64,000 nt of DNA. Source: Lachnospiraceae bacterium. GTDB taxonomy: Bacteria; Bacillota; Clostridia; Lachnospirales; Lachnospiraceae. Every line of letters starts with the position of its first letter. The first letter of the stretch is position 1. Positions 13,628 to 30,071 of this stretch are shown here, piece by piece. The notes under the pieces are model-generated. The model had not been told where the DNA came from. It made no database searches and worked only from the letters and a program-made list of their open reading frames with translations. A program made the position numbers and the translations under genes. The stretch covers positions 33,119 through 97,118 of the forward strand of contig JAFZLD010000027.1 in the NCBI GenBank assembly GCA_017553505.1. The letters are read 5' to 3'.

Positions 13628-14173
13628 ATGATTCTTTATCACGCAGGATTTGAAATCATAAAAGAACCTGACATTCACCATGGGCGTAAGAATGCTGATT
13701 TCGGGCAGGGCTTCTATACCACCTCCGATGAGGAATTTGCCAAGCGCTGGGCGAGAAGCGCCAAGGGCTCAGAATCTATAGTTAATAAATACGAACTGGA
13801 CACCGAAGCCCTGACTATAAAGCGCTTTGAACGAGACGCCGAGTGGTTTGAATACATTTATGGTAATCGTAACCTTAAGCCGGATAAGCTTGCGGCAGAC
13901 GTAATCATCGGCCCCATAGCCAACGATACGATATTTAACACGCTCGGCATCACCACAGGCGGATTCTTAGAGCCTGAGGAGGCCATGCAGCTTCTTTGGG
14001 TGGGACCCGAGTATACGCAAGTAACGCTTAAGACTGAGGCGGCGGTGAGTCACCTTAAGTGGCTGGGCTCGTATACGTTGTCTTTCGAAGAGTTGGATAG
14101 ATACAAAGAGCAGCTTATAGACGAAGAAAAAGAATATCAGAGTGCGCTTGCACGGCAACTTACCCACTTATAA
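13628..14173 (+). CDS. DUF3990-like protein (function unknown)
   Basis: 181 aa; the N-terminus ILYHAGFEIIKEPDIHHGRKNADFGQGFYTT...AKRWA resembles my recollection of the DUF3990 family; not verified by search. Confidence 0.6.
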   Translation: MILYHAGFEIIKEPDIHHGRKNADFGQGFYTTSDEEFAKRWARSAKGSESIVNKYELDTEALTIKRFERDAEWFEYIYGNRNLKPDKLAADVIIGPIANDTIFNTLGITTGGFLEPEEAMQLLWVGPEYTQVTLKTEAAVSHLKWLGSYTLSFEELDRYKEQLIDEEKEYQSALARQLTHL

Positions 14174-14187
14174 CAAGTGGGTTTTTG
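14163..14187 (+). terminator. intrinsic terminator overlapping the stop codon of the DUF3990-like gene
   Basis: CCCACTT-ATAAC-AAGTGGG followed by TTTTT. Confidence 0.7.
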
Positions 14188-14259
14188 CACTTTAGCAGAT
14201 TGATGTGATATAATCACAGAAAGGTACTTACATGAGTTGGGGCTTGCGGGAGGTTTAAC

Positions 14260-14475
14260 ATGGGCGCAAACAGTCGTCTTAAGAAGAGGAAAAGATACTA
14301 TCCGGGATATCTGATTGCTACGGGTGAGGGATTTTTATTTGGCATTATCGTTCCTGCAATTACGGTTATCGGCTATTTAATTGTACGGTATACCGGTATC
14401 TGGTGGCTTCCGATATTTACCACACTTTTGGTCGGGCTTGGCGTGCCGGCGACATACGCACGGCCGAGAAGGTGA
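14260..14475 (+). CDS. small hypothetical membrane protein (71 aa, two predicted helices)
   Basis: GGAGG upstream; hydrophobic segments GFLFGIIVPAITVIGYLIV and WWLPIFTTLLVGLGVPA; no family recognised. Confidence 0.35.
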   Translation: MGANSRLKKRKRYYPGYLIATGEGFLFGIIVPAITVIGYLIVRYTGIWWLPIFTTLLVGLGVPATYARPRR

Positions 14476-14596: not shown

Positions 14597-15535
14597 ATGA
14601 ACTTTACAGATGCATTGGAGAAGGGTAACCTTGAGGCGATTCGTGAGTGCCCCAAGGCTGATTTGCACAATCACTTTGTGCTCGGCGGAAGCCGGAAATA
14701 TTTGAAAGAACAGACGGGCAGAGACATTCACCCGATTACAGAGCCACTGCATTCCATGAATGATATGCATGCGTGGAATGGGCAGAATATAGGTAATTAC
14801 TTTGACACACCCGAAGGTCGCAGGCTGCTTATAAAGGCTACCTTTACCCAAGCCAAAGAAGACGGCGTTACCATCCTTGAAATCGGTGAAGATGTGTGGG
14901 GGCTGGGCGCTTTCTTTGGTGGAAATATTGATGAACTGGCAGAGGCGTTTGAATCCGCTCATAAGGAGATTGCGCCGGAGATTGAGCTCAGGCTTCAGAT
15001 AGGTATGTCGCGACATTGCGATATAGCGTATTTGGAAGACTGCCTGTCGCACTTCTGGGGATGTAAGGCGTTTTATTCTATAGACTTGTACGGCGACGAG
15101 CTTGCGCAACCCATAGAGAACTTCATACCCATTTACAGGCGTGCTAAGACCGAAGGACTCAGGCTTAAGGCTCATGTGGGAGAATGGGGCACGGCAGAGG
15201 ATGTACGCAGGGCTGTGGAGTGCCTGGAGCTCGACGAAGTGCAGCACGGAATCGCAGCGGCGACAGACCCTTCGGTAGTCCGCTTCCTGGCAGATAATAA
15301 GATACGTCTGAATATCACGCCGACCAGCAATTATCTACTCGGACGGGTGCAGGATTTGAAGGACCATCCCATCGCCGAGCTCTACCGAAACGGTGTAGAT
15401 GTGACCATTAATTCCGACGACGTACTAATCTTTGACTCGGATGTTTCCAAGGAGTACCTGCGCCTGTATCAATCGGGCTGCCTGACGGCTTCGGAACTTG
15501 ACGATATCAGAAAAAACGGCTTAAAAAAGATTTGA
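14597..15535 (+). CDS. adenosine/adenine deaminase family metallohydrolase
   Basis: 312 aa; KADLHNHFVLGGS (HxH metal motif), LKAHVGEWG, TINSDDVLIFD (terminal Asp-Asp motif). Confidence 0.75.
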   Translation: MNFTDALEKGNLEAIRECPKADLHNHFVLGGSRKYLKEQTGRDIHPITEPLHSMNDMHAWNGQNIGNYFDTPEGRRLLIKATFTQAKEDGVTILEIGEDVWGLGAFFGGNIDELAEAFESAHKEIAPEIELRLQIGMSRHCDIAYLEDCLSHFWGCKAFYSIDLYGDELAQPIENFIPIYRRAKTEGLRLKAHVGEWGTAEDVRRAVECLELDEVQHGIAAATDPSVVRFLADNKIRLNITPTSNYLLGRVQDLKDHPIAELYRNGVDVTINSDDVLIFDSDVSKEYLRLYQSGCLTASELDDIRKNGLKKI

Positions 15536-15561
15536 GGTGTCGACATGACACCTCTTTTTTG
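15534..15561 (+). terminator. intrinsic terminator after the deaminase gene
   Basis: GAGGTGTC-GACAT-GACACCTC followed by TTTTTT. Confidence 0.85.
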
Positions 15562-15657: not shown

Positions 15658-16563
15658 ATGAATATCAATCAGCTTAAATATGTTCTTGAAGTTGCGGCAT
15701 CGTCGTCCATGCGTGAGGCCGCTACCAGGCTTTTTGTAACGCAGCCTGCATTATCTGCAAGCATCAGAGAACTGGAAGAGGAACTTGGTATCCACATATT
15801 TAACAGGACAAATAAAGGTATTTCGCTTACTCCCGAAGGACGCGAGTTTATTGTCTATGCCAAAAAGTCGGTGGGACAGTACGCAATACTTGAGGACAGA
15901 TATTTATCGGCCAACAGAAACAGAGAGAGATTCTCGGTATCGACGCAACATTATAATTTCGCGATACGTTCTTTTACCGAGGTAATCAGGAAGTTCAGCC
16001 CGGAGAAGTTTCTTTTTTCGATACATGAGACGAAGACCAGAGATGTGCTGGAGCATGTTAGAGATATGAAGAGCGAGGTCGGAATAGTGTCGTATTCGAG
16101 CGCCAATGAAGCTGTGCTTAAAAAACTTTTGAAGGAGTATCAGCTCGACTTTGTACCGCTTATGACTCGTGCGGCATACGCGTATGTGTGGAAGGATCAC
16201 CCGTATGCGGGCAGGGACGTGGTTTCGCTTGAAGAATTAAAGAAGTTTCCCTGCGTAGCCTTCGACCAGAGCGATGACAGCAATTTCTATTTAACGGAAG
16301 AAGCGATGGCGGATTATGACTTTGAGAAAATGATTCGCTCGGACGACAGAGCCACCACCATGGAGATTCTGGCAGAGCTAAACGGCTACTCCATAGGCTC
16401 AGGCATGCTTTCGGGGGATGACGTAATACTGCAAGGTCTTACGGCCATCAAGCTCAAAGAAGAAGATCCGCTTATCATCGGCTACATCACGAGAAGCGGC
16501 GCCGAACTGTCCAAGTACGGTCAGGAATACGTAAATGACCTGCAGAGATTTCGCGAGATATAG
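15658..16563 (+). CDS. LysR-family transcriptional regulator
   Basis: 301 aa; N-terminal wHTH MNINQLKYVLEVAASSSMREAATRLFVTQPALSASIRELEEELG plus a LysR substrate-binding-type C-terminus. Confidence 0.9.
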   Translation: MNINQLKYVLEVAASSSMREAATRLFVTQPALSASIRELEEELGIHIFNRTNKGISLTPEGREFIVYAKKSVGQYAILEDRYLSANRNRERFSVSTQHYNFAIRSFTEVIRKFSPEKFLFSIHETKTRDVLEHVRDMKSEVGIVSYSSANEAVLKKLLKEYQLDFVPLMTRAAYAYVWKDHPYAGRDVVSLEELKKFPCVAFDQSDDSNFYLTEEAMADYDFEKMIRSDDRATTMEILAELNGYSIGSGMLSGDDVILQGLTAIKLKEEDPLIIGYITRSGAELSKYGQEYVNDLQRFREI

Positions 16564-16588
16564 AAAGAAAAGTACGTGACAAACTGAC

Positions 16589-16630
16589 ATCCTCGGTGAT
16601 AACCGCAACTTATCGCCGAGGATTAATTTT
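16589..16630 (+). terminator. intrinsic terminator after the LysR gene
   Basis: ATCCTCGGTGATAA-CCGCAAC-TTATCGCCGAGGAT (14-bp stem with one G-U) followed by TAATTTT. Confidence 0.75.
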
Positions 16631-16743
16631 ACAGAATTTTCAAACTCGGAGTACAAGTGTATTATAAATCCAACGGGTGAGGCAATCACCCACACAGCGG
16701 TTGATACAGCCGCCACCGAATCTACAGAAAGGAAGAAGAAAAG

Positions 16744-16854
16744 ATGAAGACTATGACTATGAGACGAATGTACGGTATGTGCTGTGGCATGTGTTGTTGT
16801 ATAGACCAATCGAATAAACCCGGAGATAAACGTCTCAAATCAGTTACCTTGTAA
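16744..16854 (+). CDS. candidate Met/Cys-rich leader peptide (36 codons)
   Basis: Hand translation gives MKTMTMRRMYGMCCGMCCCIDQSNKPGDKRLKSVTL. AGGAAG-type RBS at 16730-16737. 6 Met and 5 Cys fall in the first 19 codons and none afterwards. Below the ORF-track length cutoff. Confidence 0.5.
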   Translation: MKTMTMRRMYGMCCGMCCCIDQSNKPGDKRLKSVTL

Positions 16855-16893
16855 TCCGAAAGAAGGATTATTGTTAATATGCAATTTTAAGGT

Positions 16894-16920
16894 GTCTGCG
16901 AGAGCGCAGACTATTTTTTT
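16894..16920 (+). terminator. intrinsic terminator in the operon leader (candidate attenuator)
   Basis: GTCTGCG-AGAG-CGCAGAC followed by TATTTTTTT; lies 40 nt after the uORF stop and 46 nt before the ATG of the binding-protein gene. Confidence 0.8.
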
Positions 16921-16966
16921 GCACTTTTTTAGGAAAAATAACACAGAACAGAGAGGATTAAGAATC

Positions 16967-17917
16967 ATGAAAAAATCAATTATCAAAAAGTTTTTGGCAG
17001 CAACAGTACTTGCAAGCGTGGTATTAACAGGATGCGGAAAGGCTTCCGATACCAAGGAGACAGCAAGTAACTCAGGATCCACCGAAGTAATCGGAGCATC
17101 CACAGAAGCATCCGTTGAAGCTTCCGCAGAAGGAACAGACGGCGTAAGAAAAATCGTAGTATCTCACTCCGCAGCATCATGGCCTTACAATGTACTTACC
17201 GCTGAAGGCGAGAGCGACGGTTACGAAGTAGCCGTACTTAAGGCGGTTGACGAGCTCCTTCCCCAGTACGAGTTCGTATTTGAAGCAACAGGCGACGACA
17301 GTGACCTTTTAATCGGTGTTCAGACCGGTAAGTACCAGATCGGTACCAAGGGCGCATGGTGGACAGAGGATCGTTCCACTAAGTACCTCTTCCCCGAGCA
17401 CTACATCGCAGCATCCGTAACAGGTATCGCATTCAGAACAGAGAACGCAGATAAGATTAAGGATATGCAGTCATTTGCCGATTTCTCAGGCTTGCTTGTA
17501 CCCCTTGCACCTCAGAACGCACAGTACACCATCATTGAGAACTACAACAAGAACAACCCCGATCATCAGATTATCTTAGAGCCCGCAGACAACTTCTCCA
17601 ACTCCGAGCAGTATCAGTGGGTACTTGAAGGAAGATATGATGCAGCATTCGTAATCCAGACTGCTTTCGGCGCTATCGTAGAAGCTGAAGACGGTGAATA
17701 TCATCAGTATGCAGACCAGCTTTCCTATGTTCCTTACGAAGCAATTCCTACCTATCCTTTATTCACCCTCGGCGAAGACGAGCTTGCTAAGGCTTATGAC
17801 GAAGCATGGGAGAAGCTCCTTGAGAACGGCACTCTTGCAGAACTTCAGGATAAGTACTTCGGCTTCAACGTATATGACCTCGTTCCCGAAGGATATCAGA
17901 TTGGCGACGAACTGTAA
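16967..17917 (+). CDS. amino-acid ABC transporter substrate-binding lipoprotein (family 3 SBP type)
   Basis: Start at MKKSIIKKFLAATVLASVVLTGCGKAS (lipobox LTGC), not the ORF-track TTG at 16871; first gene of the transporter set. Confidence 0.85.
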   Translation: MKKSIIKKFLAATVLASVVLTGCGKASDTKETASNSGSTEVIGASTEASVEASAEGTDGVRKIVVSHSAASWPYNVLTAEGESDGYEVAVLKAVDELLPQYEFVFEATGDDSDLLIGVQTGKYQIGTKGAWWTEDRSTKYLFPEHYIAASVTGIAFRTENADKIKDMQSFADFSGLLVPLAPQNAQYTIIENYNKNNPDHQIILEPADNFSNSEQYQWVLEGRYDAAFVIQTAFGAIVEAEDGEYHQYADQLSYVPYEAIPTYPLFTLGEDELAKAYDEAWEKLLENGTLAELQDKYFGFNVYDLVPEGYQIGDEL

Positions 17918-17961
17918 TCCGGATAATCAGGAAAATACATTGACTTGAAGGAGTAACTGCT

Positions 17962-18669
17962 ATGCATCCATTTCATCCGTCATACGTTTTTACAGTTTTG
18001 GTTCAACTGTTTCCATACATCGGCGTTACGCTCCTTATGATGCTTGGAACCGTAATTTTCGGCGGGGCAATCGGTATTCTTTTGGCCAAGGCGAAAATAA
18101 AAAGAAGAATAGTGCCGAGAGCGATTGCAGAGGTATATACATATCTTACAAGATGCGTCCCCTCAATCATAATGCTGTTTATCGTGTATTACGGTGTTCC
18201 GGCGCTGCTTCTTCAATTTGGAATCAACATTAACAACTTTAACAAAGGAGTATTCGTAATCACAGCTTTTTCAATACTCTTTGCTTCTAATCTTGGCGAA
18301 GTGTTCAGGGCTGCATACCTTGCAGTCGACCCCGGACAGAGAGAAGCCGCTGTATGTAGCGGCCTCTCCGAGTTCCAGGCCTTTTACAGAATCATCCTTC
18401 CGCAGGCGGCGGTTCACGCATTACCGAACTTTTCGAACATGCTTGTCAACCTCATGAAAGAAGGCGCGCTGGCATATTCCATCGGTCTTATCGATGTCAT
18501 GGGCGAAGGAAACCTGCTTATAGGAAGAAACCAGGGTTCTTACACCCTTGAAACATATCTTGGAATGGCCATCATCTACTGGGCACTCACATATGTAATT
18601 GAATTAATCTTCGGTAAGCTTGAAAAGAATCTTTCCAAAGGAAAGAAACACGCCACATCCGTTGCATAA
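17962..18669 (+). CDS. amino-acid ABC transporter permease (HisM/GlnP type)
   Basis: 235-aa polytopic protein; EAA-loop EAAVCSGLSEFQAFYRIILPQA. Confidence 0.88.
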   Translation: MHPFHPSYVFTVLVQLFPYIGVTLLMMLGTVIFGGAIGILLAKAKIKRRIVPRAIAEVYTYLTRCVPSIIMLFIVYYGVPALLLQFGININNFNKGVFVITAFSILFASNLGEVFRAAYLAVDPGQREAAVCSGLSEFQAFYRIILPQAAVHALPNFSNMLVNLMKEGALAYSIGLIDVMGEGNLLIGRNQGSYTLETYLGMAIIYWALTYVIELIFGKLEKNLSKGKKHATSVA

Positions 18670-18684
18670 AGAAAGGAATAACCC

Positions 18685-19398
18685 ATGAAATTAAACACAG
18701 AATTTATGAGGGAAACCTTCATTGCATCGCTTGGGGGTATACCGAAGACAATGCTGATAACGATTCTTACACTTCTTGTTTCCATACCGATTGCTTTTGC
18801 CATGGCATTATCAAAACTAGAGAACAAGAAAGTATCAAGCAAATTTGTTACCGCATACGTATCATTCATACGAGGGACGCCGATAGTGCTTCAGATACTG
18901 TTCATATACAGCCTGCTTCCCTCGACACTCAATCACTTAATCAAAGATGTTCTCGGACTTTCCGTAAACGTCTTTAAAATGAACAAGATTGTTTATGCAA
19001 TTATTGTTTTTTCGCTTAATAACATAGCTGTTCTTACAGAACTTTTCAGGTCGGCTCTCGGTACGGTCGGACATGGACAGATGGAAGCAGCCATGACGGT
19101 AGGCCTTACCAAGAGACAGGCTTACAGAAGAATAATCATCCCGCAGGCGCTTGTTGCGGCACTTCCGAACCTATGTAACACGGTAATCGGACTTATAAAG
19201 AACACATCTCTTGCCTTCTTAATGGCAGTGCAGGAGATTACCGCAATATCCAAGATGAAGGCAGCCGCCGGATACTATTACATCGAGGCTTACCTCATGA
19301 TTGCATTGATTTACATTATTGTATGTACCGTGGTGCAACTTCTTTTTGCACTGATTGAGCATCAATTATCGGCATACAAGAAGAGACTGGCTGTATAA
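18685..19398 (+). CDS. amino-acid ABC transporter permease (second subunit)
   Basis: 237 aa; EAA-loop [22 protein letters not shown]. Confidence 0.88.
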
Positions 19399-19412
19399 CG
19401 GAGGAACTTAAT

Positions 19413-20168
19413 ATGTTATTTAGCGTAAAAAACGTAAGCAAAGCGTTTAAAGATAATCAGGTACTTAAGAAAGTTGATTTGGAAGTAAATAAAGGCGACG
19501 TGGTCGTAATCCTCGGTCCTTCGGGTTCCGGCAAAACAACGCTTCTTCGCTGTATCGACTTTTTGGAAAAAGCAGACGGCGGCGAGCTTGATTTTGACGA
19601 CATCCACACGGATTTATCACACGCTTCTGCCAAGACAATTGAAAAAGTCCGCAAGAAATCGGCTTTCGTATTTCAGAACTACAACTTATTTGCCAACAAG
19701 ACCGCACTTCAGAACGTTACCGAAGGCCTTACAATCGGAAGAAAGGTTCCAAAAGACGAGGCAATAGAGATTGCCAAGAAAGCTCTTGATAAGGTAGGTC
19801 TTTCGGACAAATACGATTCTTACCCTGTGCAGTTATCCGGCGGACAGCAGCAAAGAGTAGGTATTGCAAGAGCAATCGCAGTTAACCCGGACATCATTCT
19901 TTTTGATGAACCTACTTCAGCACTCGATCCCGAACTTGTAGGCGAAGTCTTAAAGATTATGAGAGAACTTGCGGGAGAAGGAATCACGATGATTGTGGTA
20001 ACCCATGAGATGAAGTTTGCTCAGGATGTGGCCACCAAAGTCGTATTTATGGACGGCGGCGTGGTCGTTGAGGAAGGCACACCCAAAGAAATATTCACTA
20101 ACCCTAAAGAAGAGCGTACCAGAGAATTCCTGATGCGAATCTTACCTGATTTTAACTATTCAATTTAA
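19413..20168 (+). CDS. polar amino-acid ABC transporter ATP-binding protein (GlnQ type)
   Basis: [42 protein letters not shown]. Confidence 0.92.
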
Positions 20169-20196
20169 ATATCTGTGAGAAAGGAACATAAGAGTT

Positions 20197-21231
20197 ATGG
20201 CTAAAGAATATACACCCTACGAGAGAATTAGGGCTATGGTGGAAGGACGCGAAGTAGACCGTCCCGGTGTCAGTGTATGGAGACACTTCCATGCAGACGA
20301 CAGAGTAGTAAGCGATTCGGTTAAGGCTCACATCGCATTTCAGGAAAGAAACCAGTGGGATTTCATTAAGATAATGGCTAACGGTATCCACATTCAGGAG
20401 CAGTACGGAGCCAAGATTCGCTGGTCAAGAGACGGTATCGAATTCCCCACCACACTTGCAAGATACATTAACAGCCCCAAGGAGTTCAGGAATCTTAAAA
20501 AGGTTGATATTCATACCGGCGCTGTGGCAAGAGAGGTAGAAGTTGCCAAGCGTCTCAAAGAATACTACGACGGCAAAGTTCCGGTTGTGGCAACTGTTTT
20601 TTCGCCACTCACTTATGCTCAGGAACTTTATAACGGATTTCAGGATCCCGCCCGTTTCATTCCCCTTGTAAGAGAATACGGGGATGACCTCAAAGAAGGT
20701 CTTAAAGTTCTTACGGAAGTAACCCGCGATATTGTTGAAGCATATGCAAATGCAGGTGTCGACGGTATCTTCTATTCAACTCAGTTTGCCAACGATTCAC
20801 AGATTACACCCGAAGAATATGATGAGTTTGCCATTAAGAGCGACCTTGAAGGCTTTGAGCCCGCTATCGGCAAGACATGGTTTAATATCCTCCATATTCA
20901 CGGCGATTCAAATCTGTATTTTGATAAATTCCTTGATTTTCCTTTTGAAGCTTTAAACTGGCAGTCAACGGTTACAAACGTATCACTTTCCGATGCTGCA
21001 AGAAAGACCAACAAGATATTAATCGGCGGTATCGACCGAGAGAAGGGCTTTTCTTTCCCTACAAGAGAAGAACTGACCGAGAAAATCAGAAAGAACGTTA
21101 CGGATGCCATTGCTTCGGTACCTGCCAACAGATTGGTTATCGCACCCGGATGCTCACTTCCTACCGAACTTTCCGACTATAGGTTTAATGTACTCAAAGA
21201 CGTTATTGATGAATTATATCCCAACACCTAA
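20197..21231 (+). CDS. uroporphyrinogen decarboxylase (URO-D)/MtaA-family protein, function unknown
   Basis: 344 aa; N-terminal VDRPGVSVWRHF and C-terminal IAPGCSLPTE resemble the URO-D/methylcobamide methyltransferase fold family; called by eye. Confidence 0.7.
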   Translation: MAKEYTPYERIRAMVEGREVDRPGVSVWRHFHADDRVVSDSVKAHIAFQERNQWDFIKIMANGIHIQEQYGAKIRWSRDGIEFPTTLARYINSPKEFRNLKKVDIHTGAVAREVEVAKRLKEYYDGKVPVVATVFSPLTYAQELYNGFQDPARFIPLVREYGDDLKEGLKVLTEVTRDIVEAYANAGVDGIFYSTQFANDSQITPEEYDEFAIKSDLEGFEPAIGKTWFNILHIHGDSNLYFDKFLDFPFEALNWQSTVTNVSLSDAARKTNKILIGGIDREKGFSFPTREELTEKIRKNVTDAIASVPANRLVIAPGCSLPTELSDYRFNVLKDVIDELYPNT

Positions 21232-21248
21232 AGAGTACGGAGGCAGTT

Positions 21249-22259
21249 ATGAGTAAAGTAAACATAGTCATAATCGGTGCCGGCGAGATAGCCGCAAGAA
21301 GACACATACCCGCTCTTTTACAGGGGGAACACACCAATTTCTATGGAGTACTGAACCTTCATCCAGAGTCCACCAAGGCTGTTGCTCAAAAGTATGGCGT
21401 AAAAGCATATGAGAGCTTTGATGAGGTTTTGTTTGATGAAAATGTGGATGCTGTTTTGATAAGTACCCCGCCGGACAGACATGCGGAACCCGCCATTGCA
21501 GCCTTAAAGCATGGCAAGCATGTTCTTTTGGAGAAGCCCATGACCTTATCCGTTAAGGAGGCTGAAGCGATTAACGAAGCAGCCAAAGAATCAGGCCTTA
21601 AGTTTGAACTCTTACACGTACAGCGTTTCTATCCACAGCACGCAAAGGCCAAAGAACTTCTTGAAAGCGGAGCCATAGGCAAACTTATTACGGCGCGCAC
21701 GGTTCTTGGCAACAATGAACCCGACGTTTTAGCCGGAAGGAAATATCCCGGCTGGATGGATGCACTTTTTAACATCAGCGTTCACAGAGCCGACCTCATA
21801 CGCTGGCTTGTGGGTTCGGAAGTTAAGGGTGTTTACGCGCAGGTAGACAGACTTCTTTCCGAGACGATAGAGGGCGATATCAGAGAGACCAATGACCATG
21901 TGACAGGCATCCTTCAGTTTGAAAACGGTGTTGTGGGAACTTTAATAGCATCCAAATTAAGTTTCCACGGAGAGGACCGTTCCACAACCCTTATTGGTAC
22001 AAAGGGAGCCATTATTACATTTGCGGAAGGTCATGACGTGGTGCTTAAATTAAGCGACGGAACCACACAGTACTTTGATTTTGAATCGTCTCACGAGCAG
22101 GGCGTTTTGGAATTTACCGACCTTCACGAGCGTTTTGCTTTAAGCATTCTTAATAACACACCTGTAGATGTTACCGGCGAAGACGGCATCGAGGCAGTCA
22201 GAATTGTGGAAGGCTTCCAAAAGGCCGCCAAAGAGAAAAAATATACGGAAATTCGATAA
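21249..22259 (+). CDS. Gfo/Idh/MocA-family NAD(P)-dependent oxidoreductase
   Basis: VIIGAGEIAARRHIPAL Rossmann N-terminus, VLLEKPM motif. Confidence 0.85.
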   Translation: MSKVNIVIIGAGEIAARRHIPALLQGEHTNFYGVLNLHPESTKAVAQKYGVKAYESFDEVLFDENVDAVLISTPPDRHAEPAIAALKHGKHVLLEKPMTLSVKEAEAINEAAKESGLKFELLHVQRFYPQHAKAKELLESGAIGKLITARTVLGNNEPDVLAGRKYPGWMDALFNISVHRADLIRWLVGSEVKGVYAQVDRLLSETIEGDIRETNDHVTGILQFENGVVGTLIASKLSFHGEDRSTTLIGTKGAIITFAEGHDVVLKLSDGTTQYFDFESSHEQGVLEFTDLHERFALSILNNTPVDVTGEDGIEAVRIVEGFQKAAKEKKYTEIR

Positions 22260-22270
22260 GGAGAAAAAAT

Positions 22271-23260
22271 ATGTCATCCAAGAGAGACCTTGTTTTAAAA
22301 GCATTTAACAACGAAAAAACCGACCGTGTGCCGGTAGGCTTCTGGTTCCATTATGCCAAGGACGAATCCGTACCTCAGAGCGATGAAGTTATAAAAATAA
22401 ACTATAAGGGTCACGTGAAGTTTATCGAGGACTGGGACCCCGACTATGTAAAGATTATGAGCGACGGCTTCTTTAACTATCCCGGACTTCCCGACGAGCC
22501 CATAAAGACTGCAGCCGATTTAAAGAAGATTAAGGCAGGAAAGCCCGAGACTCTTAAGTGGATTGACGATCAGGTGGCGCATGTTAAGAATATTACCTCC
22601 AAGTACGGCAACGATATTGTCACTATCTACAACGTTTTCTCACCCGCAACATACCTTAATATTGGAATTTCTGCATTTACCTTCGACAGTATCGTGAAGC
22701 TTTACAACGAAGATGCTGAAGCGTTAAAAGAAGCATTACTTACTATCGCCGAGGACATCAAGATTCTTGCCGAGAGAGTAATCAAAGAAGGAGGCACAGA
22801 CGGCATCTACTTCAGCGTCGGTAACTTTAACGGAATAAGTAAGAGCGAATACTTAAAGTTCATTGCACCCGCTGAAATCGCAGTTCTCGAAGCCGCCAAG
22901 TCAGTAAGCGACAACAGCATGCTTCACATTTGCGGCTTTGACGGCAGAAGAAACGACCTAACAACATATGCTGATTACCCTGTAAAGGTTATCAACTGGG
23001 CAGCAGGCGTAGAGCGCGTATCACTTGAAGAAGGCAAGAAAATATTCGGCGGTCGCGCAGTGGTAGGCGGATTTGCCAACACTGCAGACGGTGTACTTTA
23101 TAAAGGCACCAAAGAACAGATTCAAGCAGAAGCCAAGAAGATTTTAAGCACGGCAGGCACAAGAGGAGTTATCCTCGGCGCAGACTGCACTATCCCCCGC
23201 GACACACCCATTGAGCATCTTAAGTGGGTACGTGAGGCGGCCGAAGAATTCGGAGCATAA
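22271..23260 (+). CDS. second URO-D/MtaA-family protein, function unknown
   Basis: 329 aa; TDRVPVGFWFHY and ILGADCTIPRDTP; distant paralog of 20197-21231. Confidence 0.7.
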   Translation: MSSKRDLVLKAFNNEKTDRVPVGFWFHYAKDESVPQSDEVIKINYKGHVKFIEDWDPDYVKIMSDGFFNYPGLPDEPIKTAADLKKIKAGKPETLKWIDDQVAHVKNITSKYGNDIVTIYNVFSPATYLNIGISAFTFDSIVKLYNEDAEALKEALLTIAEDIKILAERVIKEGGTDGIYFSVGNFNGISKSEYLKFIAPAEIAVLEAAKSVSDNSMLHICGFDGRRNDLTTYADYPVKVINWAAGVERVSLEEGKKIFGGRAVVGGFANTADGVLYKGTKEQIQAEAKKILSTAGTRGVILGADCTIPRDTPIEHLKWVREAAEEFGA

Positions 23261-23262
23261 TT

Positions 23263-24051
23263 ATGGATTTAGGATTACAGGGAAAAGTTGCCGTCGTAAC
23301 AGGCGGCAGCAAAGGAATAGGCTACGCAACAGCTAAACTTTTCCTCGAAGAAGGTGCCAAAGTTGCTATCTGTGCAAGAGATAAGGCCAACCTGGACAAG
23401 GCAGTCAAAGAACTGTCTGCGTACGGTGAGGTTTATGCCGAGGCAATTGATGTTACTGAAGAGGAAGCGGTATATGGCTTTGCGGACCGTGTGGTTGAGC
23501 GCTTCGGAGCAATCGATGCATGGGTTAACAATGTAGGTTCTTCTTTTGCCAGAAAGAAAGCTCAGTATTCCGGCGAGGAAATAGACAAACACTACACAGT
23601 GAATTTCAGGTCTGCGGTATTCGGATGCCAGGCGGCATTCAGATACATGAAGGACAGAGGCGGCAGCATTGTGAATGTAAGCTCACTTGCCGCAAGATGC
23701 GCAACCTCCGGAAGAGCATCCATCTACGGTCCCATGAAGGCGGCGGTCAGAAGCCTTTCACAGACCTTCGCAGGCGAGTATGCGGCCTACGGCGTGCGTG
23801 TGAACTGTGTCATGCCGGGATTTACGGACACTCCGCTTGTGCGGGAACATTTAGACCCGGCAGAGCTTGCATATACGACGAGCGAAACACTTTTAAACAG
23901 AGCGGCACGACCGGAAGAAATCGCAGCGCCGATAGTATTTTTATCAAGCGACAGGGCTTCTTTTATGACAGGAACGACCGTGGAAGCCTCGGGCGGGCGC
24001 AGCGTTACGCTTAATCCCACGTACTCATGGGATAAGAAAGCATCTGAATAA
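23263..24051 (+). CDS. short-chain dehydrogenase/reductase (SDR)
   Basis: VVTGGSKGIGYA cofactor motif, catalytic YGPMK (YxxxK). Confidence 0.88.
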   Translation: MDLGLQGKVAVVTGGSKGIGYATAKLFLEEGAKVAICARDKANLDKAVKELSAYGEVYAEAIDVTEEEAVYGFADRVVERFGAIDAWVNNVGSSFARKKAQYSGEEIDKHYTVNFRSAVFGCQAAFRYMKDRGGSIVNVSSLAARCATSGRASIYGPMKAAVRSLSQTFAGEYAAYGVRVNCVMPGFTDTPLVREHLDPAELAYTTSETLLNRAARPEEIAAPIVFLSSDRASFMTGTTVEASGGRSVTLNPTYSWDKKASE

Positions 24052-24085
24052 AAGAATTACATTGGGGTACCAAAGGAGAAAGAAA

Positions 24086-25210
24086 ATGGCGGATACGAGT
24101 TACGATATAGAAACCCGATGTTGTCACTACGTGACAGACATTGTAAACGGACATCCTCACGGAGCGGTCAGCGTTCCGATTTATCAGACGGCTACATTTG
24201 CACACAGGGAGATAGGAGAGCATCCTACGAAGGATACGTTCACGTACAGTCGCGGAAGTAATCCGACAAGAAGGGAGCTTGAGGATACTCTTGCATCTTT
24301 GGAAGACGCGGGCGACTGCGTGGCTACGGCTACCGGAATGGCGGCCATAGCGCTTGTGCTGGAGCTTTTTACTGCAGGAGATCACGTGATATGCACTTAC
24401 GATCTTTATGGCGGAGCGGTAAGAATCTTCGGAGAAATAGCGCCGAAGCGCCAAGTGTCATTTAGCTATGTGGATACCGGAGATATCGCTGCGGTTCGTG
24501 AGGCAATTCGTCCGAATACAAAGGCGCTTTATATCGAGACTCCCAGCAATCCGACCATGAAGGTTACAGACCTTCGCGAGATTAAAAAACTTGCCGATGA
24601 ATACAATTTGCTGCTGATTGTAGACAATACATTCTTAACTCCTTACTTTCAAAGGCCGCTTGAGCTTGGTGCCGATATCGTGGTACACAGCGGCACCAAG
24701 TATCTTGCAGGTCACAACGATACCTGTGCAGGCTTTATCTGCACCTCTAAGGAGCGTAAGGACCTTGCCGAAAGAATCCGTTACCTTTGTATGAGCTTCG
24801 GTCCTACGCTTGCACCAATTGATTCATTCCTTGTTCTTCGCGGTATTAAGACGCTTGCTCTTCGCATGGAGAGACAGTCGGAAAATGCCAAGGTGATAGC
24901 GGAATGGCTTAAGAAACACAAGAAGGTTAAAAAGGTCTATTACGCCGGTTATGGCGCGATGATTTCTTTTGAAACCGATACGGAGAAGACTGCGTTAGAT
25001 ACGCTTCACAAGGTTAAGCTGGTGATTTTCGCTGAAAGCCTCGGCGGTGTGGAAAGTTTGATTACCTATCCGATGATTCAGACACACCGTGAACTGCCCA
25101 AGGAGCAAAGGGAGCTTTTGGGCATCAATGAGAAGTTTTTGAGATTGTCTGTGGGCATCGAGAATGTGAACGACATTATTGGGGACCTTGAGCAGGCACT
25201 GGTTGATTAA
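24086..25210 (+). CDS. Cys/Met-metabolism PLP enzyme (cystathionine beta-lyase/gamma-synthase family)
   Basis: Start at MADTSYDIE (ATG 24086, AAGGAG upstream); PLP-lysine motif HSGTKYLAGHND; ESLGGVESL. Confidence 0.85.
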   Translation: MADTSYDIETRCCHYVTDIVNGHPHGAVSVPIYQTATFAHREIGEHPTKDTFTYSRGSNPTRRELEDTLASLEDAGDCVATATGMAAIALVLELFTAGDHVICTYDLYGGAVRIFGEIAPKRQVSFSYVDTGDIAAVREAIRPNTKALYIETPSNPTMKVTDLREIKKLADEYNLLLIVDNTFLTPYFQRPLELGADIVVHSGTKYLAGHNDTCAGFICTSKERKDLAERIRYLCMSFGPTLAPIDSFLVLRGIKTLALRMERQSENAKVIAEWLKKHKKVKKVYYAGYGAMISFETDTEKTALDTLHKVKLVIFAESLGGVESLITYPMIQTHRELPKEQRELLGINEKFLRLSVGIENVNDIIGDLEQALVD

Positions 25211-25230
25211 GCGGATAGGGAGACAGATTA

Positions 25231-26415
25231 ATGGGATATGATTTTGATAAGATTACGGACAGAAAGGGCACTAAGTGCTTGAAATATGACTTCGCGACGG
25301 CAAGGGGCAAGAAAGAAGGCCTGATTTCCATGTGGGTGGCGGATATGGATTTTCCTACCGCACCGGAGATTCTTGAGAGCCTTCGCGGCGTGGTGGACCA
25401 TGGAATATTCGGCTATACCGAATCGGACGACGCGTATTACGAAAGCGTTGCCGACTGGTATCGTACACACTTTGAATGGGAGCCGCGAAAAGAATGGCTG
25501 ATTAAAACTCCCGGAGTGGTATTCGCGCTTTCGGCGGCCATCAGAGCCTTTACCAAAGAAGGCGAGGCGGTACTGATTCAGCAGCCCGTTTACTACCCTT
25601 TCAGCGAGGTAATAGTCGATAACGGAAGAAAACCGGTAGACAGCCCATTGGTTCTTAAGGGCGACCACTACGAAATAGACTTTGATGATTTCGAAAGAAA
25701 GGTTATAGAAGAGCGCGTAAAGCTTTTCATCCTCTGCAGCCCTCACAACCCTGTGGGACGCGTATGGAAGGAGTGGGAACTTCGCCGAATCGGTGAAATT
25801 TGCGTGGCGCATGACGTGATAGTGTGCTCGGATGAGATTCACAGCGACTTTGTGTGGGAAGGGAATAAGCATACAGTATTTGCATCCCTGGATCCTGCTT
25901 TTGCCGAAAGAAGCATTACCTGTACGGCGCCGAGTAAGACCTTTAACCTTGCGGGATTGCAGGCTTCCAACATATTTGTCCCCAATCGCAGGTTAAGACT
26001 TGCACTCAAAAAAAGTATTGCCGCGACGGGCTACAGCCAGCTTAATACCATGGCACTTTTTGCCTGCGAGGCCGCGTATACCCACGGAGATAAGTGGCTT
26101 GGTGAGCTTAAAGAGTATCTGCAGGGAAATATAAAGTATTTTAACGATTTTTTGGAGCGCGAGTTACCGATGCTTCACCTGATTAAGACCGAAGGAACCT
26201 ACCTTCTCTGGGTTGATTTCAGGGAACTTGGGCTTACGGAACTTGAGCTTGAGGATTTGATAGTTAACCGTGCCGGCCTGTGGCTTGACAGCGGCGCAAT
26301 GTTTGGTAAAGTCGGAGAGGGCTTTGAAAGATTTAACATCGCCTGCCCGAGGTCTGTGCTGGCAGCAGCGCTTGAGCAGCTTAAGAGAGCCGTTCTTTCG
26401 CTGAAGGCATCATAA
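25231..26415 (+). CDS. PatB/MalY-type aminotransferase class I/II C-S lyase
   Basis: DKITDRKGTKCLKYDF N-terminus typical of MalY/PatB; PLP-lysine motif APSKTFNLAGL. Confidence 0.85.
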   Translation: MGYDFDKITDRKGTKCLKYDFATARGKKEGLISMWVADMDFPTAPEILESLRGVVDHGIFGYTESDDAYYESVADWYRTHFEWEPRKEWLIKTPGVVFALSAAIRAFTKEGEAVLIQQPVYYPFSEVIVDNGRKPVDSPLVLKGDHYEIDFDDFERKVIEERVKLFILCSPHNPVGRVWKEWELRRIGEICVAHDVIVCSDEIHSDFVWEGNKHTVFASLDPAFAERSITCTAPSKTFNLAGLQASNIFVPNRRLRLALKKSIAATGYSQLNTMALFACEAAYTHGDKWLGELKEYLQGNIKYFNDFLERELPMLHLIKTEGTYLLWVDFRELGLTELELEDLIVNRAGLWLDSGAMFGKVGEGFERFNIACPRSVLAAALEQLKRAVLSLKAS

Positions 26416-26476
26416 CTTCCGTGCATTCACTTGACAACGGTCTTGCCTGATAATAATATTGTAAATGACAAAGGGG

Positions 26477-26506
26477 TCCATATCTTTGGGATATGGATTC
26501 TTTTTC
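26477..26506 (+). terminator. intrinsic terminator closing the 10-gene operon
   Basis: TCCATATC-TTTGG-GATATGGA followed by TTCTTTTTC, 62 nt after the stop. Confidence 0.6.
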
Positions 26507-26565
26507 TTTGAAGAGAGAGAAGTTAGAGAAGGAGATATGGTGAGAAGGCTCACCGTATAAGAAGG

Positions 26566-27246
26566 ATGAATCTATTTGACATTATCGGGCCGGTAATGGT
26601 GGGACCGTCGAGTTCGCACACTGCCGGTGCGGTTAAGATCGGCTATGTGGCAAGGCGCCTTTTGGGCGAGAAAGTTGTGTCCGCGGACATAGGACTGTAC
26701 GGGTCCTTTCTGGCTACGGGTAAGGGTCATGGCACCGACGCGGCGCTGGTGGCGGGAATACTCGGCATGAAAATGGACGACGACAATATTCCAAACAGCC
26801 TTAAAATAGCCAAAGAAAAAGGTATTAAAGTGCGCTTCGGCAAGGCTGACATTAAGGATGCGCACCCCAACTCGGTTGAGATTAAGCTTGTGGGCGAAAA
26901 CGGAAGGCAGCTTTCTATCGTAGGAGAGTCTGTGGGAGGTTCACTCATTAATATTGCAAAGATTGACGGTCTTGATGCCAACTTTTCGGGGGATTTCCCT
27001 ACGCTTATCGTGCACAATCAGGACCAGCCGGGTCACGTGGCCGAGGTCACGGGTATGCTGGCTGAGAAATCGGTTAATATAGCCACCATGCAGCTTTATC
27101 GTGCTAACAGAGGCGGTAATGCGGTTATGGTAATCGAGTGCGACCAGGAAGTGCCGGAGAAATATCTTGAGTGGCTTAAGAACCTGGACGGAGTCAACAA
27201 AGTTACGTATTACAGTCTGATCGAGGAGGGAAAAAATGAGTTTTAA
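26566..27246 (+). CDS. sdaAB: L-serine dehydratase, iron-sulfur-dependent, beta subunit
   Basis: GPVMVGPSSSHTAGA motif plus an ACT-like C-terminus. Confidence 0.9.
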   Translation: MNLFDIIGPVMVGPSSSHTAGAVKIGYVARRLLGEKVVSADIGLYGSFLATGKGHGTDAALVAGILGMKMDDDNIPNSLKIAKEKGIKVRFGKADIKDAHPNSVEIKLVGENGRQLSIVGESVGGSLINIAKIDGLDANFSGDFPTLIVHNQDQPGHVAEVTGMLAEKSVNIATMQLYRANRGGNAVMVIECDQEVPEKYLEWLKNLDGVNKVTYYSLIEEGKNEF

Positions 27247-28114
27247 GAAGCTGTCTGAAATAACCGCAATTTCGGAAGATAAGAAGATTCCCTTCTGGCA
27301 GGTAATTTTGGAAGACGATATGAAAGAGCGCGGTGTCACAAGGGAAGAGTCCATGAAGACGATGGGTTCTATGCTTGATACCATAACCGAAGCCGATGCC
27401 AAGTACGATGAGTCGATTCGCTCCGCAAGCGGTATGGCGGGCGGAGACGGCGGCAAGATAGAGACCTTCAGAATGAAGGGTAATTCACTTATTGACGGAT
27501 TCATTCTTGAAGTTATCGAAAAGGCCGTTAAGATGGGCGAATCCAACGCCTGCATGAAGAGGATTGTCGCTATGCCTACAGCGGGTTCCTGCGGCGTCAT
27601 TCCTGCAGTTCTTTTGACATATATTAAGCACAAAAATGTTGAGCGTGAAAGAATAATAGAAGCCTTGTATGTTGCGGGCGGTATCGGTGAGGTAATAGCT
27701 ACAAGCGCAAGCATTTCCGGCGCCGAAGGCGGATGCCAGGCTGAGATAGGAAGCGCCGGCGCCATGGCAGCGGGTGCTCTTGCGTACCTTGAAGGCGGCG
27801 GCAACGAAGAGATTGTGCATGCCGCAGCGCTTACCCTTAAGAACATGCTCGGACTTACCTGCGACCCCGTAGCTGGCCTTGTAGAAGTCCCCTGCATCAA
27901 GAGAAATGCCGCAGGTGCGGTTAATGCCGTAGTATACTCTCAGATGGCTATGGCGGGCGTACGAAGCGCCATAGAGCCCGATGAGGTCATTGATTCCATG
28001 AACCGTATCGGAAGATTGCTTCCTTCATGCCTCAAAGAAACCGGGCAGGAAGGCCTTGCAATCACCAAGAGCGCCGAGAAGATTACGGAGCGCCTGAGCA
28101 TGAGCTGGCAGTGA
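27236..28114 (+). CDS. sdaAA: L-serine dehydratase, iron-sulfur-dependent, alpha subunit
   Basis: AGSCGVIPA and GGCQAEIGSAGAMAA cysteine motifs; overlaps sdaAB by 11 nt. Confidence 0.9.
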   Translation: MSFKKLSEITAISEDKKIPFWQVILEDDMKERGVTREESMKTMGSMLDTITEADAKYDESIRSASGMAGGDGGKIETFRMKGNSLIDGFILEVIEKAVKMGESNACMKRIVAMPTAGSCGVIPAVLLTYIKHKNVERERIIEALYVAGGIGEVIATSASISGAEGGCQAEIGSAGAMAAGALAYLEGGGNEEIVHAAALTLKNMLGLTCDPVAGLVEVPCIKRNAAGAVNAVVYSQMAMAGVRSAIEPDEVIDSMNRIGRLLPSCLKETGQEGLAITKSAEKITERLSMSWQ

Positions 28115-28247: not shown

Positions 28248-30071
28248 ATGCAGGACAAGAACAAAAAGATATCTGTTAATCTAATTATGGTTGTGTTGGG
28301 GCTTTTGGCCGTTTGTGCGGTATTAAGCCCTGTTCTTTATCTGACGGTTCGTGACGGGCTCGGCAATGCTGTGTTCCCGTTTCACGATCAGCTTGATGAA
28401 ACTATATTGAATTATGTTTTTCCGGCCAGATATTTCGGGGCGTCTGTTTACGAACAGATGATGTGCGGAATTCCGCAGGAAGGACTTAAGCCCTTCTGCC
28501 CGATATTTGTGCCGCTTTATTCGATTTTCAGCGTATATACGGCTTTCCTTATTCAGCACTGCATTACCGTTGTGACGGCATATGTGGGAATGTACTTGTG
28601 CGTAAGGAAGCTGACCGACAACTATTTAATTTCTTTCGGAACGGCGTTTTTATTCGCACTGTTGCCTGTTCACAGCATATATGGCAACGTTGTGATGGGA
28701 ACACCGCTTTTGATTTACTGTATCCTAAGATTCAGGGAGAAGGCCTTGTCGGGTAAGATTATTGCCGGTATAGGGCTGGTATTCTATGCGCTCTCCACGA
28801 GCTTTGTGCTGTCGGGGTGGGTGGCGCTTTCGTTAGTGTTTCTTGTATTCATCATTATTTCTTTAAAAAATAAAAAAGCGGATTGGATGCTTTTGTGTTC
28901 TTTCGGCATATTGCTGGCAGTGTATGTGGCGTGTAACATAGATTTATTTATCGAAGTATTTTCCGGTGATACATGGGTAAGCCACAGGACAGAGTTTGGA
29001 TTCGGAGTGAGCGGTAAGCCGTTTCTTGAGACCTTCGTAGGACTCTTGACCAAAGGAAGCTATACTTACGAGGCTGAGTCCAAGCATGAATTTGCGCTTA
29101 TACCTATCGGTGTGGCGGCGCTGCTTCTTTTGATAAAAAAGCAGAGAGAGAAGTTCGGAAAGATTTTCGCCTGCGTGGCAGGGACTATTGCGGTGCTCGC
29201 TTTCTTCTCAGCACTCATGGATACGGAGTTTGTCGGTAAGCTTCAGGATAAGTTGCCGGGAATGTTGAGTTCGTTCCAACTTTCGAGATTCTATTATTTC
29301 TTGCCGGGATGCTGGTTTGTGTTGCTGGGTGTTTCGGGCGCGATAATTGTAGAGGCTTTTCCTGCGAAGAAGCTATGGGTATTGGTATCATACGCTTTGG
29401 TGGCAGTGCTTTTTTTGCCGACCTTAAACAGGATTGCAAGAGATAAAGACGGAATATTCTATCAGAATATCAATCAAATCAACAATGGGAAGGCGGTAAC
29501 GGGTTATATTACCATGAAGAGCCTGTATTCAGATGATTTGATGAAAATTATAGAGGAGGCGATTGGTAAAGATATGTCGTCGTACAGGGTTGTGCACATC
29601 GGTATAAGCCCGGTTGCGGCTTTGATGCACGGCTTTAATACGATTGACGGGTATTCGAATAACTATCCATTGGAGTATAAGCATACTTTCAGGAAAGTTA
29701 TTGCGGATGAGCTGGAGCTTAATGATTACAATAAGACATACTATGATTGTTGGGGCTCCCGCTGCTACGCGTTCTACCATGAGTGGGGCAACGCATTTAT
29801 GTTGGGAAAGTCGTTTGGGGAAACGATTGCCGATTTGCGGTTAAATTTTGACGAGTTAAGGAAGCTTAACTGTCAGTACATTTTTTCGGCAGGGGAAATA
29901 GTCGATTGCGGTAAGTACGGATTGCGTTTTATCGGAGATTATGAAACGGATTCGTCTTATTGGCATATATTTGTGTATGAGGTGGAGAATAATGAGGAAG
30001 ACAGCGTTTCGGATAGGGATATCGGAAATCACTATTGTGCTGCTTATGATTATCTGGGGGATAAACGGTAA
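28248..30071 (+). CDS. large polytopic membrane protein with C-terminal soluble domain (DUF6044/YfhO-like; function unknown)
   Basis: 607 aa with about 12 hydrophobic segments followed by a ~200-aa hydrophilic tail; family assignment is tentative. Confidence 0.65.
   Translation: MQDKNKKISVNLIMVVLGLLAVCAVLSPVLYLTVRDGLGNAVFPFHDQLDETILNYVFPARYFGASVYEQMMCGIPQEGLKPFCPIFVPLYSIFSVYTAFLIQHCITVVTAYVGMYLCVRKLTDNYLISFGTAFLFALLPVHSIYGNVVMGTPLLIYCILRFREKALSGKIIAGIGLVFYALSTSFVLSGWVALSLVFLVFIIISLKNKKADWMLLCSFGILLAVYVACNIDLFIEVFSGDTWVSHRTEFGFGVSGKPFLETFVGLLTKGSYTYEAESKHEFALIPIGVAALLLLIKKQREKFGKIFACVAGTIAVLAFFSALMDTEFVGKLQDKLPGMLSSFQLSRFYYFLPGCWFVLLGVSGAIIVEAFPAKKLWVLVSYALVAVLFLPTLNRIARDKDGIFYQNINQINNGKAVTGYITMKSLYSDDLMKIIEEAIGKDMSSYRVVHIGISPVAALMHGFNTIDGYSNNYPLEYKHTFRKVIADELELNDYNKTYYDCWGSRCYAFYHEWGNAFMLGKSFGETIADLRLNFDELRKLNCQYIFSAGEIVDCGKYGLRFIGDYETDSSYWHIFVYEVENNEEDSVSDRDIGNHYCAAYDYLGDKR

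Follow-up and report, generated by a model that had tools for sequence, protein, structure and literature searches.

The present study analyzes a ten-gene operon in a Lachnospiraceae bacterium (contig JAFZLD010000027.1), within a 64 kb stretch that is called the window here and to which all coordinates refer; the operon probably serves cysteine and methionine supply. The window is part of a metagenome-assembled genome whose S9 protein is identical to the one in the rumen isolate Lachnospiraceae bacterium YSD2013. The operon region, 15658-26510, was described from an open reading frame (ORF) listing together with Pfam and NCBIfam scans, and the features given for it lie on the + strand. A LysR-family transcriptional regulator gene (15658-16563; Pfam HTH_1 and LysR_substrate, all NCBIfam matches far under their cutoffs) is followed by a leader ORF and then by ten same-strand genes at 16967-26415, with intergenic gaps of 44, 15, 14, 28, 17, 11, 2, 34 and 20 nt, and this confirms the tight spacing of 2-44 nt after a LysR regulator that a first-pass annotation of the same DNA had described. 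The first four genes encode an ABC importer: a TcyE-like lipoprotein substrate-binding protein (16967-17917; Pfam SBP_bac_3, true ATG at 16967, lipobox LTGC), two permeases (17962-18669 and 18685-19398; both BPD_transp_1 and both with a cystine ABC permease as top NCBIfam match, under cutoff), and an ATPase (19413-20168; ABC_tran, top NCBIfam match TcyN at 323 bits vs a cutoff of 406). After these come URO-D#1, the first of two barrel proteins resembling MtaA (20197-21231; PF01208 at 1.4e-23), an accessory Gfo/Idh/MocA NAD(P) oxidoreductase (GFO; 21249-22259; assigned by Pfam, iolG at 175 bits vs a cutoff of 355), URO-D#2, a TcyD-like second barrel of the MtaA kind (22271-23260; PF01208 at 8.8e-24), and an accessory short-chain dehydrogenase/reductase (SDR; 23263-24051; adh_short, PRK07231 glucose 1-dehydrogenase at 203 bits vs a cutoff of 215). 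The last two genes encode pyridoxal phosphate (PLP) enzymes, namely a MetB/MetI/MccB-like enzyme of Cys/Met metabolism (CMPLP; 24086-25210; PF01053, Cys_Met_Meta_PP, at 7e-128), which starts at the ATG at 24086 preceded by AAAGGAGA and not at the TTG at 24062, and a MetC-like C-S beta-lyase of the PatB/MalY type (25231-26415; Aminotran_1_2).

There were several regulatory signals between the LysR gene and the importer. A terminator-like hairpin with a 14-bp stem lies 3′ of the LysR gene (16589-16623) and is kept in two close relatives (L006 and L007), and beyond it is a promoter-like site for leader and operon (16637-16665; TTTTCA-17-TATTAT), a consensus match only, with a -10 element conserved in L007. 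Two small hairpins at 16676-16713 (GGGTGAGGCAATCACCC and GCGGTTGATACAGCCGC) stand between this site and the leader ORF; the former is conserved in L006 and L007 and the latter is deleted in L007. The leader ORF (16744-16854) has 36 codons, MKTMTMRRMYGMCCGMCCCIDQSNKPGDKRLKSVTL, of which, as read from the sequence, 6 are for Met and 5 for Cys. An intrinsic terminator-like hairpin and T-run (16894-16920, the hairpin at 16894-16911) separates it from the first gene and is the presumed attenuator, with a dG of about -16 kcal/mol with flanks and a sequence invariant in L006 and L007. The Met/Cys leader suspected in the first-pass annotation is thus real, and its core, MCCGMxCC, is kept in L006, L007 and two further relatives (L091 and L092) with flanking residues that vary. 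Three features of a leader attenuator were found here: a short ORF of regulatory codons, an intrinsic terminator, and conservation in relatives. The window had no Rfam match at gathering thresholds and the leader region none even at E<=1, on which ground a riboswitch or T-box 5′ of the operon was rejected. In ribosome-masked folding, the probability of the terminator stayed at 95% or above whether the mask covered the Cys/Met codons or the stop region, and a classical antiterminator was rejected because both free and ribosome-masked folding retained the terminator.

At the far end, a hairpin and T-rich run at 26476-26510 (stem at about 26476-26498, then TTCTTTTTCTTT) is a probable, not a certain, terminator of the operon; it is low in G+C and fails the G+C rule of a simple terminator scan. 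It had been proposed earlier that the transcript ends at a hairpin near 26477, and the hairpin and its T-rich tail are present. It may instead be a shared terminator or part of a leader for the L-serine dehydratase genes sdaAB (26566-28114), which start 55 nt past it, because a further promoter-like site (TTGACA-17-TAATAT, 26431-26459) lies just upstream of the hairpin.

The importer is of the polar amino-acid type, as had been annotated, and the best solved relatives of its binding protein are 4c0r, 4eq9, 4gvo, 2o1m (YtmK of Bacillus subtilis) and 6a80, of which the top two, 4c0r and 4eq9, are what we take to be streptococcal glutathione-binding GshT. For CMPLP the best NCBIfam matches were PRK08247 and PRK07671, under cutoff, and its PDB matches are cystathionine gamma-lyases and synthases; the PatB/MalY-type protein matched PDB 6qp3, PatB, at 1e-104 and also cystalysin and cysteine-S-conjugate beta-lyases. 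Neither enzyme reached an equivalog cutoff. The pair recurs in L035, L077 and L090 and behind many of the related cassettes described below, and from this pattern of matches the two would more simply be a transsulfuration pair of the MetB/MetC type, cystathionine gamma-synthase/lyase and beta-lyase. The earlier idea of a sulfur-compound operon with two C-S lyases therefore stands in its link to sulfur amino acids and not in its reading of the PLP enzymes. For GFO, the PDB sequence matches were inositol dehydrogenases, glucose-fructose oxidoreductase and DgpA-type glycoside 3-dehydrogenases.

Profile searches and structural models of the two URO-D proteins agree with the fold first assigned to them (PF01208, closest to MtaA). 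The model of URO-D#1 (pLDDT 92.8) has MtaA 4ay7 as its best PDB match at a TM score of 0.81, the model of URO-D#2 (pLDDT 93) has the same best match, and for the two together the TM scores against this methylcobalamin:CoM methyltransferase are 0.78-0.81, with HemE and MetE ranking next. Identity to MtaA is approximately 20-21% and that between the two proteins 24%, and the two family profiles can be aligned over their full length and share their conserved columns. In the family alignments the zinc-ligand positions of MtaA are invariant in both families, as His-x-Cys...Cys in URO-D#2 and its relatives (H219, C221, C306) and as His-x-His...Cys in URO-D#1 and its relatives (H233, H235, C319), where one ligand Cys has become His. 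From these conserved positions both are predicted to be MtaA-like zinc proteins, and His-Cys-Cys is a mark of S- and Se-methyltransferases in the URO-D superfamily (PMC10418091). A HemE identity was rejected, with no HemE model among the NCBIfam matches, no haem genes nearby, and HemE structures at 12-19% identity ranking under MtaA. The MtaA and CmuA models of NCBIfam gave 45-70 bits (best 70 and 56) vs cutoffs of 235-244. Neither the operon nor the roughly 55 window genes checked against Pfam include a gene for a corrinoid protein, in agreement with the first-pass annotation, and annotation of the frequent neighbour families at about 160 related loci gave no corrinoid protein or activase; a corrinoid partner may be encoded elsewhere, or free cobalamin may be used. 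We found no function assigned in the literature to these URO-D proteins, and the window URO-D#2 is annotated as ‘hypothetical protein’. With the corrinoid:thiol methyltransferases MtaA, MtbA and MtsA these proteins share the URO-D (beta/alpha)8 fold and the zinc-ligand positions, but unlike them they come without a cognate corrinoid protein or activase and fall under the NCBIfam cutoffs. Another comparison is with the type 1 mlp clusters of Kountz and Balskus (PMC10418091), which also hold several MtaA-like URO-D proteins with His-Cys-Cys sites in anaerobic Firmicutes and have a context that ties them to the metabolism of methionine and of methyl-sulfur or methyl-selenium. However, a type 1 cluster combines Mlp2 and Mlp3 with a corrinoid protein and Ram/RACE, whereas the operon has neither corrinoid protein nor RACE, and its URO-D proteins are under the 25% identity to MtaA that is the mlp criterion (PMC10418091) and are tied to an ABC importer.

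A core cassette is conserved around URO-D#2. The URO-D#2 family had 787 clusters at 90% identity in one search and 113 representatives at 50% identity (E<=1e-30) in the other, and its neighbourhoods, taken from three look-ups and an 80-locus metagenome scan, resolved into 33 lineages at 80% identity, 30 of them informative. In all but one of these 30 (29/30), URO-D#2 adjoins orthologues of the window's importer genes (binding protein, two permeases, ATPase); in L050, L086, L088 and L090 the cassette genes are 42-73% identical to the window's, the binding protein 50-64%. CMPLP, usually with PatB, follows the cassette in 7 lineages and an SDR gene (50-57% identical to the window's) precedes it in 5, and a dehydrogenase gene is absent from most cassettes. 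The flanks of a Youngiibacter cassette hold an Rrf2 regulator, a CMPLP-PatB pair, a PALP enzyme and a MetQ-type (NlpA) lipoprotein. Oral streptococci commonly have the cassette too, in a form with two tandem URO-D#2 paralogues. Between these paralogues is a 67-residue protein with one predicted membrane helix and a HCKNGERCRGVQDF motif, seen in L119, L127, L145 at 7795-7998 and about 20 other streptococcal loci.

The full ten-gene set was present in the close relatives L006 and L007 only, and its enzyme half in the truncated contig L093. Of the other relatives, L091 (proteins 95-100% identical) is without GFO, and L092 (77-94% identical) is without URO-D#1, GFO and SDR and retains the leader, importer, URO-D#2 and both PLP enzymes; because of these two loci, the importer, URO-D#2 and PLP genes are the core and URO-D#1, GFO and SDR are accessory. 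The LysR gene is kept beside the operon in L006, L007 and L091 and was not found there in L092. L006 (DBWM01000055.1) bears the title ‘Myxococcales bacterium UBA1238’; with operon proteins 96-99% identical to their counterparts in the Lachnospiraceae window, it is probably a mislabelled or mis-binned metagenome-assembled genome.

Leaders rich in Cys and Met codons were likewise not confined to the window. Five unrelated peptide types precede the URO-D#2 cassette at nine loci (eight and the window), each time with a hairpin and T-run 27-69 nt beyond the stop codon; examples from outside the window are MRQT...MCMGKGMCMCMCCYC, ...NCICCHSKASSMCCCIC, ...RMCCCSRMPMCRMMCC and ...NMNCCCLCY. A sixth type of 25 residues, xFEKLVRENFRNGxMCLCCxC, is conserved across several lineages with URO-D#2 cassettes (L117 340-417; L149 4639-4716; L138 7764-7841; L155 7763-7840; L120 3885-4010; and L114, upstream of 8001). 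Its Cys run stands right at the stop codon with no terminator hairpin downstream, and the fact that residues other than Cys are conserved as well may point to a mechanism acting through the nascent peptide or on translation, unlike that of the terminator-type leaders. Leader regions of the other URO-D#2 cassettes had no Rfam family match, and Cys-rich small ORFs of L115, L118, L122 and similar loci, which lie far upstream with a gap of 421-434 nt and have no terminator, were rejected as chance occurrences. In L076 (Secundilactobacillus folii) a T-box with an AUG (Met) specifier, its register calibrated on the cysS T-box of L008 (GAA-G-UGC-A), precedes an operon of ATPase, binding protein, two permeases and a URO-D#1-like protein. 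A second T-box in L076 (5141-5401) lies upstream of a D-2-hydroxyacid dehydrogenase gene, beside PALP and Cys_Met_Meta_PP genes; with one base fewer in the specifier loop, its codon is ambiguous, GAA or AAA. Short upstream ORFs with consecutive Cys codons, a terminator and cysteine-related genes are also features of the Cys-codon leader attenuators reported for Rhodobacterales cysS (uORFC-8-2; PMC8632094) and of the polycysteine leaders of actinobacteria and mycobacteria (PMC1262725, 10.1101/834739). In contrast to these, the window leader is from Clostridia, precedes an importer-enzyme operon and has Met codons among its Cys codons, and the cassette leaders comprise several unrelated peptide types. 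We found no description of Cys-codon leaders for Clostridia in the literature.

By C-terminal sequence matches, the cassette also corresponds to genes of Streptococcus mutans. According to a passage of PMC5131005 that cites Sperandio et al. 2010, the LysR-type HomR activates tcyDEFGH and metBC in this species; SMU.932-936 are described as amino-acid ABC transporters (10.1101/2023.08.21.554151), and the C-termini of SMU.932 (‘hypothetical protein’) and SMU.933 (‘putative amino acid ABC transporter’) are IAWVKEAVTL and GEDVFNYVTK (PMC10782952). These match streptococcal URO-D#2 (IEWVREAAIL) at 7/10 and the streptococcal binding protein (YFGEDVFSYVDK) at 8/10 positions, a comparison of C-terminal decapeptides only. 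We take tcyDEFGH to be SMU.932-936, which is stated neither in that passage of PMC5131005 nor in 10.1101/2023.08.21.554151, and on this numbering S. mutans TcyD would be a URO-D-family protein. The two systems would share the importer genes (binding protein, two permeases, ATPase) and a URO-D#2-family gene, a LysR-type activator, co-regulation of a cystathionine gamma-synthase/beta-lyase pair, and a role in sulfur amino-acid supply. The Cys/Met leader and LysR gene of the window would fit cystine uptake and induction when sulfur amino acids are limiting. The systems differ in that the URO-D#2-family gene would be first in S. mutans whereas the window operon begins with the importer and has URO-D#2 after two genes inserted behind the ATPase, and in that the window has a single fused operon with URO-D#1, GFO, SDR and a Cys/Met leader-terminator. 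No role for TcyD was found assigned in the literature. The gene set had seemed to be without precedent, and neighbourhood analysis shows otherwise: its core is a widespread cassette that probably corresponds to tcyDEFGH and metBC, and the window operon is an expanded version of this Cys/Met supply cassette, not an isolated gene set.

Two other systems offer parallels in logic. The YtlI-controlled ytmI operon of B. subtilis, an operon for sulfur limitation, likewise joins a LysR-controlled cystine-type ABC importer (TcyJKLMN) to enzymes that convert sulfur compounds, and the conceptual likeness with different enzymes that had been suggested was borne out, the relation at protein level being to the importer only, through a binding protein related to YtmK. 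The enzymes of the ytmI operon, which act in S-methylcysteine conversion, comprise O2-dependent monooxygenases along with an acetyltransferase and a deacetylase. No FMN monooxygenase, N-acetyltransferase or deacetylase domain was found by Pfam in the ten window genes, which instead include MtaA-like zinc proteins and NAD(P) dehydrogenases, suited to an anaerobe. In Escherichia coli, mmuP is an S-methylmethionine permease and mmuM a zinc-dependent homocysteine S-methyltransferase, induced by methionine shortage. The logic of an importer for a sulfur amino-acid derivative with a zinc-thiolate methyltransferase, induced when methionine is short, may be common to both, as a hypothesis and not as homology, since the protein families differ (an APC permease and Pfam S-methyl_trans). 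This regulon is mentioned in PMC3616900.

Taken with the gene content and leader, these patterns make it probable that the operon is a cysteine and methionine supply operon, switched on when charged tRNA-Cys or tRNA-Met is short. The core unit would consist of a cystine/glutathione-clade ABC importer, the TcyD-like URO-D#2 and the MetB/MetC-type PLP pair. The importer would take up cystine or a sulfur amino acid that is S-substituted or S-methylated, and a zinc-bound thiolate in URO-D#2 would make or break a C-S bond on the imported compound or on homocysteine. One option would be methylation of homocysteine from an imported methyl donor, as with mmuP and mmuM, and another would be to free cysteine from an S-alkyl conjugate taken up by the importer; thiol methylation or alkyl transfer is the chemistry that homology favours. 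The PLP pair would shift sulfur between the Cys and Met branches, through cysteine, cystathionine and homocysteine, and URO-D#1, GFO and SDR, as an optional add-on, would probably broaden the substrate range or dispose of a carbon residue. The analysis itself shows gene content, conservation, fold, the conserved metal-ligand positions and the regulatory signals, and the transported compound, the URO-D reaction and its direction are what we infer. Oxidoreductases (GFO, SDR, aldo-keto reductase and iron-dependent alcohol dehydrogenase, Fe-ADH) recur beside both URO-D families, with SDR relatives of 50-60% identity adjoining URO-D genes in L061, L064, L074, L078, L112, L116, L128 and L137, and this recurrence suggests that some substrates carry a hydroxyl or carbonyl group. 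Speculative candidate substrates are S-glycerylcysteine, thiazolidine adducts, S-ribosylhomocysteine and glucosinolate-like thioglycosides.

Several observations weigh against a sulfur amino-acid supply operon as described. First is that the closest URO-D#2 relative outside the window clade (66% identical, in L094-L098, e.g. L095 2290-7837) has an NhaC-type transporter, an aldo-keto reductase and Fe-ADH in place of the ABC importer, along with a 112-residue protein and a nearby LysR gene. Secondly, distant URO-D#1-like genes occur with TRAP, Liv-type and Opp transporters, dihydroxyacetone kinase, creatininase-like and other proteins, with no obvious sulfur link. Every characterised MtaA-type enzyme requires a corrinoid partner, and none is encoded here. 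The functional NCBIfam matches of the operon genes are all under cutoffs, and the S. mutans link consists of two C-terminal decapeptides, secondary citations and the equation of tcyDEFGH with SMU.932-936. Finally, no alternative antiterminator for the leader was found by free or constrained folding, and it is because of this that attenuation by the Cys/Met leader is argued from arrangement and conservation only.

An alternative explanation, which we consider unlikely, could be dedicated salvage of one S-substituted cysteine or homocysteine, in which a sugar or polyol substituent is oxidised by GFO and SDR, a corrinoid-free URO-D step takes part and the PLP enzymes cleave C-S bonds in succession. 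The resemblance of GFO to inositol dehydrogenases and glycoside 3-dehydrogenases, an SDR nearly at the glucose 1-dehydrogenase cutoff, the cysteine-S-conjugate beta-lyases among PatB relatives, and the oxidoreductases beside both URO-D families are all consistent with it, but it would not account for the loss of GFO from L091 and of URO-D#1, GFO and SDR from L092 with the rest retained, for the absence of a dehydrogenase from most cassettes, or for CMPLP-PatB being a common adjacent pair that corresponds to metBC. A sugar or polyol substituent handled by the two dehydrogenases, as first proposed, is therefore not upheld for the operon, GFO and SDR being dispensable in L091 and L092, although the S-conjugate idea may be retained for the accessory module, and not as an explanation of the whole operon, because of the recurrent oxidoreductases.

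A still less probable explanation could be a mosaic operon, with the importer, URO-D#2 and PLP pair serving cyst(e)ine and URO-D#1, GFO and SDR forming an unrelated, inserted catabolic module for a non-sulfur amino-acid or sugar derivative. The URO-D#1 family is rarer than that of URO-D#2, with 97 clusters. Homologues of at least 50% identity lie near a GFO gene in L008-L011 and L013-L018, there is no GFO gene close to the one in L012, and L014 and L019 do not extend far enough to decide. In L008-L011 the URO-D#1-GFO pair stands alone beside LacI and galactose genes, and this, the varied hydrolases and the Liv-type, TRAP and Opp transporters of distant relatives, and the absence of the module from L092 would fit a mosaic. 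However, the module sits inside the operon, with the ATPase gene on one side and URO-D#2 on the other and gaps of 11-28 nt, and is for that reason under the same Cys/Met leader. The pair also follows the cysS operon in Fusibacillus and relatives, and in L008 it sits 15 nt behind a Cys-T-box cysS operon. Elsewhere URO-D#1 genes stand beside those for a Liv-type importer, a xylose-isomerase-like barrel and a protein with an SDH_alpha domain, possibly a cysteine desulfidase homologue, or occur with an M20 peptidase, SDR and ATC hydrolase, and distant members with Cys_Met_Meta_PP, MetNIQ, PatB and polar amino-acid importers; this recurrence with sulfur-related genes, and with the Met T-box, argues against an unrelated module. 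Equally improbable is corrinoid-dependent demethylation, in which the URO-D proteins would be MT1/MT2-type enzymes passing a methyl group from imported S-methylcysteine or methionine to a cobamide in trans and on to, e.g., homocysteine or tetrahydrofolate. In its favour, fold and sequence comparisons both place MtaA nearest, the presence of two paralogues in an operon recalls MT1/MT2 sets and the mlp clusters, URO-D#2 genes stand in tandem in streptococci, B. subtilis TcyJKLMN imports S-methylcysteine, and cobamides are plentiful in the rumen. It is opposed by the lack of any corrinoid protein or reductive activase in the operon, the 64 kb window or the frequent neighbours, by MtaA and CmuA scores far under cutoff, and by a cassette common in oral streptococci, most of which we take to be without cobalamin metabolism.

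Other features of the window lie outside the operon. Upstream, a DUF3990 gene and a 71-codon ORF (13628-14475) stand between rplM-rpsI and an adenosine-deaminase-family gene, which ends with a bidirectional terminator-like hairpin at 15534-15554. Downstream, a gene for a DUF6044 protein (607 aa) and a 477-aa ORF without Pfam match occupy 28248-31374, their frames overlapping by approximately 130 nt, and a run of GNAT acetyltransferase genes extends over 40102-46559, one ORF of which is a fusion of a GNAT domain with an RsgA GTPase (44976-46559).

The interest of the operon is in its orphan MtaA-like enzymes and its leader attenuators. Known sulfur controls of Clostridia are the S-box, T-box and CymR, and Cys/Met-codon leaders would add ribosome-mediated attenuation to them. 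The related cassette has in part been studied genetically, and by its C-terminal match the first gene of the S. mutans cysteine-uptake operon would belong to an MtaA-like zinc-protein family without assigned function. A broader possibility, held tentatively and with less confidence than the supply role itself, is that the TcyD-like URO-D#2 and URO-D#1-like proteins are unrecognised corrinoid-independent zinc enzymes that make or break C-S bonds of sulfur amino acids, e.g. freeing cysteine from S-alkylcysteines or methylating homocysteine, as the missing partners of cystine-type ABC importers in many Firmicutes, both anaerobes and facultative species, that range from Lachnospiraceae of the rumen to streptococci of the mouth, the ten-gene operon being an extended version for a hydroxylated substituent. 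The URO-D family would test whether MtaA-type barrels can function without corrinoids, and knowing the URO-D#2 reaction would close a gap in the account of cysteine and methionine acquisition by gut, rumen and oral Firmicutes without oxygen-dependent chemistry.

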